Source: a candidate division WOR-3 bacterium
Lineage (GTDB): Bacteria > Hydrothermota > Tepidihabitantia > SM23-42 > JAOAFX01
Reading direction: 5' to 3'
Length of the DNA stretch: 46,132 nt
NCBI GenBank assembly: GCA_037444665.1
Contig: JBBILZ010000014.1
Span: forward strand, 1 to 46,132
This document shows, piece after piece, positions 18,573-23,720 of the stretch. The notes below the pieces were generated by a model. That model was not told the origin of the DNA. It did no database searches and worked only from the letters and a program-made list of their open reading frames with translations. Made by a program: the position numbers and the translations under genes. Each line of letters opens with the position of its first letter. Within the stretch, counting starts at the first letter, position 1.

Positions 18573-19172
18573 TTATCTGATGTCAGGGATGTTGTCCATC
18601 TGCTTTAAGATGGTCAGGTGGCAGATGGATTTGAGTGTGTCAAACACGCCGATACCCCTGAGCGCGACTGCTTCAAAATAAGTATAACCTTCGCGATTAA
18701 CATATAATTGAAGGTCACTGATGGGCAGAATATTTGGTAGGTCCCGTTTATTGTACTGGATAACCATTGGGATGTCTTTTAGACTCAGTCCATAGGACTG
18801 TAGATTATCTTTTAGATTATTATAACTTTCAACATTCTCTTCGCATCTTTCTTCCTGTGAATCTACGACAAAGACCAAACCATCAACTCCCCTGAGCACA
18901 AGTTTTCTTGATACATTATAGTATACCTGTCCTGGGACTGTGAAGAGATGGAATCTGAGTTTCCATCCTTTAATGCTACCTAAATCCACAGGTAAAAAGT
19001 CAAAGAAGAGCGTCTGGTCAAGCTCTGTGGCGAGGCTCATCATCTTTCCTTTTCTCTCCTGGGGAAAGGCAGCAAATATGGAACGCAGGTTTGTGGTCTT
19101 GCCACACAGACCAGTTCCATAATAGACAATCTTCAAGTTCAACTCTTTTGAATTATAATTCAGGTTTGCCAT
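18573..19172 (-). CDS. mglA: MglA-family small Ras-like GTPase
   Basis: KIVYYGxGLCGKTTNL, TLFFDFLP, TVPGQVYY, VVDSQ, QYNKRDLP. Confidence 0.9.
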   Translation of the reverse strand: MANLNYNSKELNLKIVYYGTGLCGKTTNLRSIFAAFPQERKGKMMSLATELDQTLFFDFLPVDLGSIKGWKLRFHLFTVPGQVYYNVSRKLVLRGVDGLVFVVDSQEERCEENVESYNNLKDNLQSYGLSLKDIPMVIQYNKRDLPNILPISDLQLYVNREGYTYFEAVALRGIGVFDTLKSICHLTILKQMDNIPDIR

Positions 19173-20677
19173 AATCCCATTTCAATAATGTTCATCCTGT
19201 TATCTATTGTATATAAATCTACCCCATCAGTCAATAGGGGAGGAGCATTACCTTCACCAAATGGCAATAATGGTTCAAGTAAGCCAATTCTTGTCTTATC
19301 AAGGGTTACCTCTGGTTTTTTTTGCTGCTTGTTCTTTGCCCGCGGTTCAGGAATATTATTGGCAGCGAATTCTACAAATTTATCAAGATGTTCTATCTTC
19401 ATTGAAAAACCAGCAGCCCTTTTGTGCCCGCCAAAATCCAGGAACAGATTTTTTATTTTATTCAAAAACTCAAAAAGATGTATGTCATAAGAGCGTAGTT
19501 CACCCAGGCAGGTGTCCTCTTTTGTCATTATAATAACCGCAGTTCTGTGAAAATAGTCACGCAGCTGGGCGGCAACTGCACCAAGATTATTAATCTTTGT
19601 TGAGACCATTGCATTTGCCGGGATAATTGATATCACAACACCCGGATAGATTTTGGCAGCATCTAACGCAATTTGAAAAAGGGCATTGATATTCATTGTT
19701 CTTGCATTTTCTATGGTTTTTAATCTTTCAATTATTTTGGCAAACTCTCGGTCTGATTCAGTAAGAAAGAATTCAAGACCGATTGCAGGGTCTTCAAGTG
19801 AAGCAGATTGGAGGAGCGGTATTATTTCATTAAAGATATAAGGGAAATTTATATGATTTTCACGCACAAAATATTTTGTCCATGGTCTGTCAATATTTTT
19901 GAATTCCTTAAGCCCGACATAACACAGAGCGCGATTTTCATTTACAGGCATCACCCGGTCTGCAAGTGTGCCAATCATTGCAATTGTAAGGAGTTCTTTT
20001 TTTAGTTTATAGAAATCTTTGTTTTCAATTCCTAATGCCATTTTGTATATTGACTGGCTTAATTTCAGGGTAACACCTGCTCCGGCAAGTTCCCTGAATG
20101 GATAGCGCGAATTGAGCCTTTTGGGGTCTAAAGCAGGTACTGGGAATTCGCTTAAATTTGTTTCATGGTGGTCACAGACAATCAAATTTAATCCCATATC
20201 CCTCGCAATATTGAAATTTTCTGTATTGCTTATTCCAAAATCAACCGTTATCAGGATTTTGGCGCCCAGTGCCCTATACTTTTTTAGAACCTCAGGATTT
20301 AATATATAACCATCCTTTTCCCGCTTGATTGGATAGAGTAGTACCTGGGGTCTATTGTTTCTACGGACATCTAATAGGGTTTGGTATAATAATGTGGCTG
20401 ATGTATAACCATCAGGGTCGTCATGGGTATAGATCAGAATATCATCACCATTTTTTAAACCTTTGATGATTTCTGCTGTTGCTATTTCAATGTCTGGTAT
20501 GGTCTGCGGGTCATTGAGTTGGTCAAGACCTGGAAAAAGGAATCTTTTTGCTTCATCAAAAGATGGAAACCTCTGGCTTATAATACAGGCAAGTTCATAG
20601 TGTATATTGAATTCCTGGGCATATCGCTGGCTTAGAATATCATCCATTATCTTTTCCCTCAGGAATTCTGGATCCAT
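19160..20677 (-). CDS. RecJ-like DHH/DHHA1 phosphoesterase (divergent, short C-terminus)
   Basis: HDDPDG, TVDFG, CDHH, YPFRELAGAGV, GTLAD...ENR, GGHKRAAG, PFGEGN; likely start ATG 20677. Confidence 0.82.
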   Translation of the reverse strand: MDPEFLREKIMDDILSQRYAQEFNIHYELACIISQRFPSFDEAKRFLFPGLDQLNDPQTIPDIEIATAEIIKGLKNGDDILIYTHDDPDGYTSATLLYQTLLDVRRNNRPQVLLYPIKREKDGYILNPEVLKKYRALGAKILITVDFGISNTENFNIARDMGLNLIVCDHHETNLSEFPVPALDPKRLNSRYPFRELAGAGVTLKLSQSIYKMALGIENKDFYKLKKELLTIAMIGTLADRVMPVNENRALCYVGLKEFKNIDRPWTKYFVRENHINFPYIFNEIIPLLQSASLEDPAIGLEFFLTESDREFAKIIERLKTIENARTMNINALFQIALDAAKIYPGVVISIIPANAMVSTKINNLGAVAAQLRDYFHRTAVIIMTKEDTCLGELRSYDIHLFEFLNKIKNLFLDFGGHKRAAGFSMKIEHLDKFVEFAANNIPEPRAKNKQQKKPEVTLDKTRIGLLEPLLPFGEGNAPPLLTDGVDLYTIDNRMNIIEMGLWQT

Positions 20678-21068
20678 TGTCCTGATAGTATCTTTTCTTG
20701 ATAAAATCAACTATTTTATCACGGTCTTCAGGTAATAGCAGAAAAACGCCACGAAAGTTGTTCAAAAAAGTTTTGTGCTTAAATGGACTCAATAAGACAC
20801 CGTTCTTTCCAAAATAGACTTTTTTAAATTCAGTCAATTTTCTCTTATTCGTGGTAAAGATGGTCTTTATTATTACTTCTTCATCAGTGATTTCATAGAC
20901 CGTCGGAAAATAGTAGGAATATAAAGAAATGAAAAGAAATATTGCACCGAGTAAAGACCAAAAAAATCCGTAAATTATTCCAATGAGCAGAAGAAAGATC
21001 GCTACAAAAATCAAACTGACAATAGTTTTTGTAAGGTTTCCATTTGCCGGGTGCACACGCCAGGTCAT
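20640..21068 (-). CDS. Hypothetical membrane protein (2 TM plus small soluble domain)
   Basis: ORF with two hydrophobic helices, co-oriented with tRNA and the RecJ-like gene. Confidence 0.7.
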   Translation of the reverse strand: MTWRVHPANGNLTKTIVSLIFVAIFLLLIGIIYGFFWSLLGAIFLFISLYSYYFPTVYEITDEEVIIKTIFTTNKRKLTEFKKVYFGKNGVLLSPFKHKTFLNNFRGVFLLLPEDRDKIVDFIKKRYYQDNGSRIPEGKDNG

Positions 21069-21142
21069 AGTCTAATATTTCCTCAATTCAAGACGCTTAT
21101 CATAACATTTGGGCGGTAAAATTCCTAAAAAATTAGTTAATT

Positions 21143-21216
21143 TGGGCCCGGTAGGACTTGAACCCACGACCCGCTGATTATGAGTCAGCTGCTCTAACCA
21201 CCTGAGCTACGGGCCC
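21143..21216 (-). tRNA. tRNA with CAT anticodon, most likely tRNA-Ile2 (lysidine), otherwise elongator Met; CCA not encoded
   Basis: GGGCCCG/CGGGCCC acceptor region, TAGCTCAG...GG D-arm, GCTGA-CTCATAA-TCAGC anticodon arm, GTTCAAGT T-loop. Confidence 0.92.
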
Positions 21217-21258
21217 CCTTTTTTTATTTTTTATCAAACATAAAAAAATTACCATACT

Positions 21259-21286
21259 ATTATATTTATTAAATAAAGTTTGTCAA
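21259..21286 (-). promoter_or_regulatory. Promoter of tRNA(CAT) (TTGACA-N16-TATAAT)
   Basis: -35 at 21281-21286, -10 at 21259-21264. Confidence 0.8.
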
Positions 21287-21324
21287 CTATACGATATTAG
21301 TAACAATTTAGCCTCCCTAAAATC

Positions 21325-21411
21325 GTAGTTGCTTGATTTATCAAGCACCAAAAAGAGCCCAATGCTCCGTCCCGATGGGACGAGAGTCCCTTCGGGAAAT
21401 TGGGCAACTAC
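21325..21411. repeat. GTAG REP doublet (gtagttgc...gcaactac) with a nested 33-nt hairpin insertion
   Basis: Inverted GTAGTTGC ends; right arm matches the uninterrupted copy at 45321-45342 except for the insert at 21365-21397. Confidence 0.75.
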
Positions 21412-21476
21412 ATTGATTTAATTCTATTTTTTAGAATGGTTAACCTATTACAAATTGCTTTCCTTACAAATAATGT

Positions 21477-21564
21477 GGCTCTATTAGATAAGCCTGCTGT
21501 ATCTTTTAACCCGTAGGAGGGAGTACGGGTTTCTTATTATAGATACAGCGGTTCTAACAGAGCC
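21477..21564 (-). ncRNA. Putative novel 88-nt rod-shaped small RNA with C-rich (anti-SD) apical loop
   Basis: Three nested stems (12, 9 and 8 bp); dedicated promoter whose predicted +1 is the first G of the stem. Confidence 0.7.
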
Positions 21565-21570
21565 GATTAT

Positions 21571-21598
21571 ATTATACCAAAAATTTACAAAAAGTCAA
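21571..21598 (-). promoter_or_regulatory. Promoter of the putative sRNA (TTGACT-N16-TATAAT, extended -10 TGn)
   Basis: -35 at 21593-21598, -10 at 21571-21576; back-to-back with the tRNA-Val promoter. Confidence 0.78.
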
Positions 21599-21601
21599 TG
21601 G

Positions 21602-21629
21602 TTGACAAAACTTAACTTTTGATTATAAT
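21602..21629 (+). promoter_or_regulatory. Promoter of tRNA-Val-groES-groEL (TTGACA-N16-TATAAT)
   Basis: -35 at 21602-21607, -10 at 21624-21629. Confidence 0.82.
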
Positions 21630-21641
21630 ATAATGTCTAAA

Positions 21642-21715
21642 GGGCGAATAGCTCAGATGGTGAGAGCGTCTGCCTTACAAGCAGAAGGTCACCCGTTCAA
21701 ATCGGGTTTCGCCCA
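21642..21715 (+). tRNA. tRNA-Val(TAC); CCA not encoded
   Basis: GGGCGAA/TTCGCCC acceptor stem, TCTGC-CTTACAA-GCAGA anticodon arm, GTTCAAAT T-loop. Confidence 0.95.
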
Positions 21716-21797
21716 GATATATTGTTTAGTATTAATCGTTGTTGGATTTCATGATTAACAGCGGTCTAAATAATAGGAATTGAAAGGAGGTAGTATT

Positions 21798-22091
21798 ATG
21801 AATATTAAACCACTCCATGACCATATCCTTGTAGAAAGGATTGAGGAAGAAGTCAGGAAGGGTGGAATTATAATACCTGATACGGCTAAAGAAAAACCAC
21901 AGCAAGGTAAGGTGATTGCAGTGGGTGATGGCCGCAGGGATGAAAAAGGTAATCGTATTGCTCTGGATGTGAAGAAGGGTGATATTATTCTTTTTGGTAA
22001 ATATGCAGGTTCAGAAGTGAAGATTGATGATAAAGAATATTTGATAATCCGTGAGGAAGATGTCCTCGGTATTATAGAGAAAAAGGAGTAA
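21798..22091 (+). CDS. groES: Co-chaperonin GroES
   Basis: [22 protein letters not shown]; start ATG 21798 behind AGGAGG. Confidence 0.98.

Positions 22092-23720
<1,629 letters not shown>

Follow-up and report, generated by a model that had tools for sequence, protein, structure and literature searches.

A candidate rod-shaped small RNA gene with a near-invariant C-rich loop, specific to one family of uncultured WOR-3 bacteria

Introduction

What lies between the divergent promoter of a tRNA-Val gene and a tRNA-Met gene in the genome of a candidate division WOR-3 bacterium? The question is raised by a stretch of 46,132 nucleotides (contig JBBILZ010000014.1 of assembly GCA_037444665.1, positions 1 to 46,132; hereafter referred to as the window), in which the minus strand from position 21564 down to 21477 can be folded into a long, rod-shaped hairpin. 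A first-pass annotation of this DNA had proposed an 88-nt RNA with its own promoter, and had read it either as a novel small RNA (sRNA) that pairs with ribosome binding sites or as a minimal 6S-like promoter mimic. The assembly of the source genome, denoted G000, comprises 2.54 Mb in 120 contigs, has a G+C content of 37.7% and is 99.5% complete. Our analysis points to a single-copy, vertically inherited sRNA gene that is restricted to a single family of uncultured bacteria. Its three-helix fold is backed by covariation, it displays a nearly invariant C-rich loop, and it is most likely a domesticated copy of a palindromic repeat, as judged from sequence comparison.

Results

A three-helix rod supported by covariation

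The sequence that the first-pass annotation had given for the minus strand at 21564-21477 is exact, and the minimum free energy (MFE) structure of these 88 nt agrees with the stems, the G-U pair (nt 7/82 of the rod) and the C-rich apical loop that it had described. The MFE rod has 12 bp in its basal stem, 2+9 bp in its middle stem, an internal loop that is asymmetric and rich in A and U, and an apical stem of 8 bp that closes the 8-nt loop CUCCCUCC; the loop is unpaired in both the MFE and the consensus structures. The folding energy is −39.7 kcal/mol, compared with a mean of −16.5 kcal/mol for 200 dinucleotide shuffles (z = −7.63), none of which was as stable (0/200). We take the segment 21477-21564 (minus strand), which is delimited by the fold, a covariance model and pair counts, to be the probable transcript body.

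Collecting homologues and testing them for covariation, as had been suggested in the first-pass annotation, yielded 22 distinct sequences after duplicates were dropped (m082 = G011, m116 = G012 and m101 = m093). When these sequences were aligned by fitting to the covariance model, 99.8% of 570 cells were able to pair and 8 of the 26 base pairs showed compensatory changes (21 cells), with 0/500 shuffles reaching this level. A structure-blind MAFFT alignment gave 98.1% pairing and again 8/26 compensatory pairs (15 cells; shuffles 0/500). Sliding the pairing partners by 1-3 columns reduced the fraction of pairing cells to only 33-43%.

The compensatory changes are spread over all three helices. 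In the basal helix, formed by the 5′ strand GGCUCUGUUAGA (21553-21564) and the 3′ strand UCUAAUAGAGCC (21477-21488), all 12 pairs are kept, with two compensatory and five one-sided (wobble) changes. The middle helix, in which GCUGUAUC (21542-21549) pairs with GAUACAGC (21496-21503), carries compensatory changes in four of its eight pairs. In the apical hairpin (21510-21529), where CCCGUA and UACGGG flank the loop CUCCCUCC (21516-21523), two of six pairs are compensated, both in the two sequences of the g2 type. All of these strands are read on the minus strand. Of the 570 cells, 40 hold G-U pairs; read on the plus strand, these would turn into A-C mismatches. The covariance model scores the minus strand at 116.9 bits versus 31.8 bits for the plus strand. 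It follows that the minus strand is the functional one and that the constraint acts at the RNA level.

Conservation of the single-stranded regions is uneven. The apical loop is identical in 21 of the 22 distinct sequences, the remaining one having CCCCCUCC, and among the seven G000 hairpins with UCCCUCC in the loop it belongs to the only strong (8-bp) one, the stems of the other six being 5-6 bp long. The internal loop is asymmetric, with 9-13 nt on the 5′ side versus 3-6 nt on the other, and is variable in both length and sequence.

One copy per genome within a single family

A short-word BLAST search with the 88 nt against the whole G000 assembly found the rod once; all other matches were 12-16 nt long. 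When 40 relatives were searched by BLAST, one full-length copy with 78-98% identity was present in all 11 genomes of the genus to which G000 belongs and in both genomes of a second genus. Of the 15 family genomes besides G000, 14 were found with the covariance model (R1) to have a single copy (g1, 11/11; g2, 1/1; g4, 2/2), among them the only genome of a third genus, in which the rod scored 52 bits; the sole family genome without a match is 67% complete. In the rest of the order, R1 matched one of 31 genomes of the sister family f2 and neither of the two genomes of f3. On the phylum sample, a model denoted R2 found the rod in 0/147 genomes outside the family. A looser model, R3, run over the class, matched the family plus the genomes G035 and G039 only, both of which belong to its training set.

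An exact pattern for the apical hairpin matched 42 metagenome loci, of which 10 are true copies. In species genomes the same pattern gave 21 loci, comprising four true copies identical to genomes already counted and 17 chance or partial matches; in viral contigs it gave 0 matches. The region upstream of tRNA-Val in five f2 genomes contained neither the rod nor the divergent promoter. Averaged over 78 pairs from 13 genomes with full flanks, pairwise identity is 87% in the rod, 78% in the 50-nt promoter block and 51% in the DNA 13-60 nt downstream, the last value being that of essentially unalignable sequence.

A conserved promoter and a U-rich tail

A sigma-70-type promoter precedes the rod (21571-21598, minus strand). 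It consists of the −35 hexamer TTGACT (21598-21593), a 16-nt spacer ending in TG and the −10 hexamer TATAAT (21576-21571), corresponding to 11/12 consensus matches plus an extended −10 TG. The promoter stands as proposed in the first-pass annotation, and its hexamers, TTGAC(T/A)-N16/17-TATAAT, are aligned in 14/14 family genomes and present in three metagenome copies, with a spacer of variable sequence. Transcription would start on the first G of the rod (21564), 7 nt past the −10 hexamer.

The rod is followed by the 3′ tail ACAUUAUUUGUA (21465-21476, minus strand), composed of (A/C)CAU and a U-rich run, which is conserved, was flagged as terminator-like by a scan and probably contains the transcript end. 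At least six T residues occur within the 12-nt tail in 21 of 22 sequences; the exception is G012. In agreement with the first-pass annotation, no conserved open reading frame (ORF) lies downstream: the sole minus-strand ORF, 36 aa at 21407-21297, falls inside a dispersed repeat that is missing at the rod locus in most relatives.

Promoters of G000 are unusually near to consensus. The motif TTGACA-N16-18-TATAAT occurs at 242 perfect sites, compared with about five expected by chance as estimated from base composition, and at 673 sites with at least 11/12 matches; 23 of the 49 tRNA genes have a near-consensus promoter within 60 nt upstream. Given how many near-consensus promoters this genome has, we make no claim of exceptional sRNA expression.

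Comparison with known RNA classes

At gathering score, Rfam 15 returned only the two tRNAs and no family over the rod, and in a permissive scan of positions 20900-22000 nothing scored better than E = 1.5 over it. No description of the sRNA was found in Rfam 15 or in the literature searched; among the matches listed for the loop CUCCCUCC in literature text, all concern eukaryotic microRNAs (miRNAs) or long non-coding RNAs.

Two widespread bacterial RNAs, 6S RNA and the small signal recognition particle (SRP) RNA, are likewise rod-shaped, stable and often unannotated, and SRP RNA is of similar size. The rod, of 88 nt, lacks the large conserved central bubble by which 6S RNA, in a rod of ~180 nt, mimics an open promoter, as well as the domain IV motif (GNAR tetraloop with conserved internal loops) of SRP RNA. 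G000 encodes both RNAs elsewhere: SRP RNA (RF00169) at C17:27444-27541 (54.6 bits, GGAA domain IV, with ...CCAGGUCCGGAAGGAAGCA...) and 6S RNA at C5:30811-30964 (83.5 bits, 154 nt). The rod shows no similarity to either copy, and we rejected a paralogue of SRP or 6S RNA. Consistent with the distinction from SRP RNA drawn in the first-pass annotation, there was no SRP match at the locus; 6S RNA (RF00013) gave no match there at gathering score or at E values up to 10.

Several other classes were considered and discarded. A bacterial Y RNA, which calls for a Ro protein gene that is mostly a neighbour, was rejected on finding no TROVE (Ro) match in the 99.5% complete genome, and an Hfq-dependent sRNA on finding no Hfq gene. 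For a sponge of the CsrB/RsmZ type, the CsrA gene was not found either, and a loop GGA would be present only on the plus strand, against which both the G-U pairs and the scores of the model speak. Integron attC sites read RYYYAAC...GTTRRRY; the arms of the rod are in the inverse order, and the element is single copy in G000. With no Rfam match, a single copy per genome, orthologues in 14/15 family genomes, covariation and a conserved promoter, the first-pass proposal of a novel sRNA holds.

Likeness of the loop to the anti-Shine-Dalgarno sequence

The 16S rRNA of G000 ends in GGAUCACCUCCUUUC. Together with its 3′ neighbour, the rod loop reads CCUCCU, the core of the anti-Shine-Dalgarno (anti-SD) sequence, which it shares with the 16S 3′ end. 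Strong SD sequences are in use in this organism, AAGGAGGT ahead of groES being one of them. In a naive calculation of duplex energies with 898 SD-bearing start regions, the loop gave a mean of −10.1 kcal/mol, compared with −7.4 kcal/mol for shuffles and −10.3 kcal/mol for the 16S tail. Co-folding of the rod with the same 898 regions by RNAcofold gave a gain of ~0 kcal/mol throughout; this result is uninformative because the method cannot represent pairing between a loop and a target.

The perfect 8-mer complement of the loop, GGAGGGAG, occurs at 20 sites in G000, including the complement of the rod itself. Four sites lie inside purine-rich heptamer-array repeats, where complementarity extends over 10-13 nt, the best matches to the loop. 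These arrays cannot be a conserved target, because only G000, G008 and G003 (3/49 order genomes) have them. The heptamer repeats are C-poor and intergenic and consist of a conserved head of ~60 nt followed by GTAGGTA/GTAAGTA arrays; there are 18 matches in G000 (C13:36640-36759, C2:2913-2994 and ~16 others), 27 in G008 and four in G003; the remaining 46 order genomes have none.

Relationship to dispersed palindromic repeats

Short palindromic elements that are dispersed across the phylum are bounded by the arms CCCCGTTAGA/TCTAACGGGG, and the basal stem of the rod is a diverged version of these arms. Intermediate states of the arms are seen within the set of rods: the metagenome member m079 keeps the exact arms CCCCGTTAG...CTAACGGGG, the rod of G012 differs by one change (CCTCGTTAG...CTAACGGGG), and those of the g1 genus read CTCTGTTAGA...TCTAATAGAG. 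The pattern CCCCGTTAG-N40-70-CTAACGGGG occurs in 15 of 49 order genomes, in up to 20 copies each and with several unrelated interiors; the genome G030 contains 20 such arm-bounded elements. The same arm pattern was found in 12/201 genomes of the phylum sample, and a reversed-pattern control gave 0 in every genome of the order and of the phylum sample. Arm-bounded elements matched in this way are 62-90 bp long. Across the phylum as a whole, elements of 60-90 bp combine the invariant arms (C)ACCCCGTTAGA...TCTAACGGGGT(G) with interiors that differ between lineages.

G000 contains no arm-bounded element other than the rod. The first-pass annotation had named many dispersed copies, as expected of a transposable element of the miniature inverted-repeat kind (MITE), as an observation that would speak against an sRNA gene. 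The rod is single copy here, and to this extent the expectation is not borne out; homology of the basal stem to the arms of dispersed repeats in sister lineages does, however, connect it with such a family. Of 12 copies inspected in sister lineages, five are flanked by 4-5-bp direct repeats, none of which are evident around the rod. Several arm-bounded copies lie in the loop of a longer palindrome, and mini-hairpins consisting of the arms only also exist. One of these follows the rod of G012 (L047:1421-1500), where GUCCCGUUAGAGG, 7 nt and CCUCUAACGGGAC are succeeded by U5; we regard it as a second piece of the repeat family that probably works as a classical terminator.

The genomes G035 and G039 each harbour a single arm-bounded hairpin with a GACCCCG.../...CGGGGU basal stem and a UCCCUCC loop. 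The two occupy non-orthologous sites, one of them in an operon spacer, and scored 29.6-31.5 and 28.8 bits before they were used for training; we treat them as related repeat copies and not as proven orthologues. Model R3, trained with both, also matches 72-nt multi-copy hairpins in sister genomes, which share with the rod only the arms (C/U)ACCCCGUUAGA...UCUAACGGGGUG. An autonomous parent element with CACCCCGTTAGA arms was not identified: the 12-mer arm sites listed for three genomes include no inverted pair 0.7-2.5 kb apart. In the distant genome G060, a subfamily of ~6 copies (e.g. C29:14735-14802) carries AAGGAGG...ATG beside one arm; read on the opposite strand, this gives ...CCUCCUUUC, which resembles the 16S tail.

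The basal stem having diverged from the arms of dispersed, phylum-wide elements, the sRNA is most likely a domesticated repeat. In the ancestor of the family, one repeat copy would have become fixed next to tRNA-Val; selection would then have kept it, and it would have evolved as a gene. Palindromic repeats and MITEs that are transcribed as RNA hairpins are familiar from the Correia elements of Neisseria and from enterobacterial REP and ERIC sequences, and the route from repeat to RNA gene is well documented for MITE-derived plant miRNAs. Like the bacterial repeats, the rod is a long hairpin whose terminal helix derives from inverted-repeat arms. Unlike them, it is single copy, orthologous across a family and equipped with its own promoter. 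Since compensatory change in its helices goes together with an invariant loop, its behaviour is that of a gene, not of a repeat.

Genomic neighbourhood

The sRNA promoter stands back to back with that of the divergent neighbour on the plus strand (21602-21715), which comprises a perfect promoter (21602-21629) and tRNA-Val(UAC) (21642-21715) and is followed by groES-groEL. On the other side, the downstream neighbour on the minus strand (21143-21286) comprises a perfect promoter (21286-21259) and tRNA-Met(CAU) (21216-21143). In the family loci checked, tRNA-Val adjoins the rod in 5/5 and tRNA-Met follows it in 3/5. Two other genera, g2 and g4, keep the groES-groEL-tRNA-Val side; their opposite side differs, and tRNA-Met is not downstream. 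No protein gene is linked to the rod in the family loci checked, and the downstream neighbours vary. In two compact metagenome loci, the tRNA-Met promoter starts ~20-30 nt after the rod.

In the window, ~64 nt separate tRNA-Val(UAC) from groES-groEL, which follows it downstream in the same orientation, an order kept in the two other genera (window 21602-23720; L047; L041). The interval between the sRNA and the tRNA-Met promoter is occupied by the dispersed repeat mentioned above (~155 bp, 21297-21452), which lies outside the RNA gene and is specific at this site to G000 and G008. The repeat starts with GTAGTTGC, ends with GCAACTAC and self-folds strongly; in G000 it gives 32 matches with a length of 100 bp or more, distributed over 25 contigs. 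Past tRNA-Met, the minus strand (18573-20710) encodes a DHH/DHHA1 phosphoesterase of 516 aa that overlaps a small Ras/Arf-like GTPase of 199 aa; as far as can be seen, both genes are unrelated to the sRNA.

Discussion

What might such an RNA do? In the model that we favour, the sigma-70-type promoter would drive a transcript of ~90-100 nt ending in the U-rich tail. The rod would serve as a stable, nuclease-resistant scaffold that displays the invariant 8-nt C-rich loop CUCCCUCC, and the loop would pair with SD-like or other G-rich mRNA segments and, with no need for Hfq, keep ribosomes from binding, in the manner of the UCCC-loop and CCUCCUCCC-loop RNAs discussed below. We put this forward tentatively; it may well be correct, and we stop short of calling it probable.

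A number of observations weigh against this proposal. None of the 19 non-self GGAGGGAG sites in G000 lies at a credible ribosome-binding site. One site precedes the ATG of a long ORF and was rejected as a target: it falls within the true coding region of a conserved protein, whose upstream start is conserved, and the site itself is not conserved in 14 orthologues. No specific conserved mRNA target thus emerged from the 8-mer scan and the orthologue comparison. The excess of duplex energy over shuffles follows largely from the composition of the loop, and a GGAGG match of 5-6 nt is generic. On the side of the gene, the start site, the 3′ end and expression itself are deduced from the DNA sequence. 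With near-consensus promoters being so common in G000, a single site is weak evidence, and it is the conservation of the promoter that counts; the U-tract, set off from the stem by (A/C)CA, does not form a textbook terminator. The compensatory cells stem mostly from a few divergent lineages (the two g2-type sequences, g4, m109 and m106), so that independent covariation events are few. Finally, the conservation of the helices exceeds what pairing needs, and fits recognition by a protein equally well.

The last point leads to a rival explanation, in which the RNA would act by binding protein and not by pairing with mRNA, as a decoy or scaffold for a protein that binds single-stranded pyrimidines, for example one with an RRM or cold-shock domain (CSD), or for a double-stranded RNA-binding enzyme to which the conserved helices would be the recognition site. 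The helix sequences are indeed conserved in themselves, with 62 of 100 columns invariant among 14 genomes and the basal-stem core GUUAG/CUAA almost unchanged throughout the 22 sequences. G000 encodes two RRM_1 proteins of ~100 aa (C41:31-240 and C63:1249-1458) and two CSD proteins, genes for Hfq, ProQ and CsrA were not found in this 99.5% complete genome, and the failure of a specific mRNA target to appear would be accounted for. However, nothing connects any of the RRM or CSD proteins to the sRNA, the locus has no linked protein gene and variable downstream neighbours, and the likeness of the loop to the anti-SD sequence would have to be a coincidence. We consider this explanation doubtful, while keeping it in view. 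A bolder variant of loop-mediated action would see in the captured mobile repeat, a copy of the phylum-wide hairpin element that gained a promoter next to tRNA-Val, a third constitutive rod RNA besides SRP and 6S RNA. Its tip would mimic the anti-SD sequence and compete with ribosomes for the start sites of mRNAs, or titrate a factor that reads the 16S tail, across the translatome and not as a regulator of one or two genes; this we think improbable.

The rod could also be a fixed repeat copy with a local role in cis, as a terminator or insulator hairpin or as the leader of the tRNA-Met transcription unit, amid densely packed tRNA promoters, and with no function in trans. Such a role would suit the homology of its arms to a dispersed repeat family and the U-rich, terminator-like tail behind it, the position of the rod in compact loci, where a promoter lies immediately on either side and tRNA-Met lies downstream, and the arms-only hairpin with U5 that terminates right behind the rod of G012. 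A terminator or spacer, however, needs neither an invariant 8-nt loop nor a conserved promoter of its own; tRNA-Met has a perfect promoter, and the rod is retained in g2 and g4 even though tRNA-Met is not downstream there. This makes a purely local role quite improbable. The 6S-like alternative of the first-pass annotation, an open-promoter mimic that binds RNA polymerase, was prompted by the rod shape and by an internal loop at a UAUAAU. That sequence is indeed present in the internal loop of G000, and of G008, but the observation does not extend to the family: UAUAAU is confined to 2 of the 22 sequences, in a loop that is variable as well as asymmetric. It is this restriction of the UAUAAU bubble that defeats the 6S-like reading, and the genome has a canonical 6S RNA on another contig, with no 6S match at the rod locus; we find this reading scarcely credible.

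The pairing model has precedents in two groups of bacterial RNAs. Staphylococcal UCCC RNAs carry an unpaired C-rich motif on a hairpin loop that binds SD regions and blocks initiation independently of Hfq (PMC2790875). With the UCCC RNAs of staphylococci and bacilli (RsaA-K, RsaE/RoxS and the RNAIII hairpins), the rod shares a conserved unpaired C-rich motif in its best-conserved part; it has no homology to them by sequence or model, there being no Rfam match better than E = 1.5. The UCCC RNAs are built from a 5′ hairpin, a single-stranded motif and a terminator and have SD targets, whereas the present RNA is one long three-helix rod with a single loop, comes from an uncultured lineage and yielded no specific target in the 8-mer scan.

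The cuckoo RNAs of alphaproteobacteria (RSs0680/SmelC397 type) are described as two to four adjacent hairpins that each have the loop CCUCCUCCC; this anti-SD-like motif is their only strongly conserved sequence, and the stems drift by compensatory change (PMC4615179). One member is reported there to be Hfq-bound (PMC4615179), and the Hfq gene was not found in G000. On this description, cuckoo RNAs and the rod have anti-SD-like C-rich loops in common, while the rod is a single nested structure with CUCCCUCC, unrelated in sequence and taxon.

Taken together, the sequence, fold and distribution of the rod define a new RNA family with an unusual single-rod architecture and a traceable repeat origin, which would be of a known functional kind, the C-rich-loop, anti-SD-like sRNAs. 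RNA regulators are nearly unknown in uncultured lineages without Hfq, ProQ and CsrA. For one such lineage there is now a well-supported sRNA family, with a covariance model, 22 sequences and an invariant loop as a testable functional element, and it offers an unusually clean bacterial case of the passage from a dispersed palindromic repeat to a conserved RNA gene. If the loop is indeed an anti-SD mimic, the C-rich-loop mechanism of Firmicutes and alphaproteobacteria would extend to a distant phylum, which would argue for its repeated evolution.

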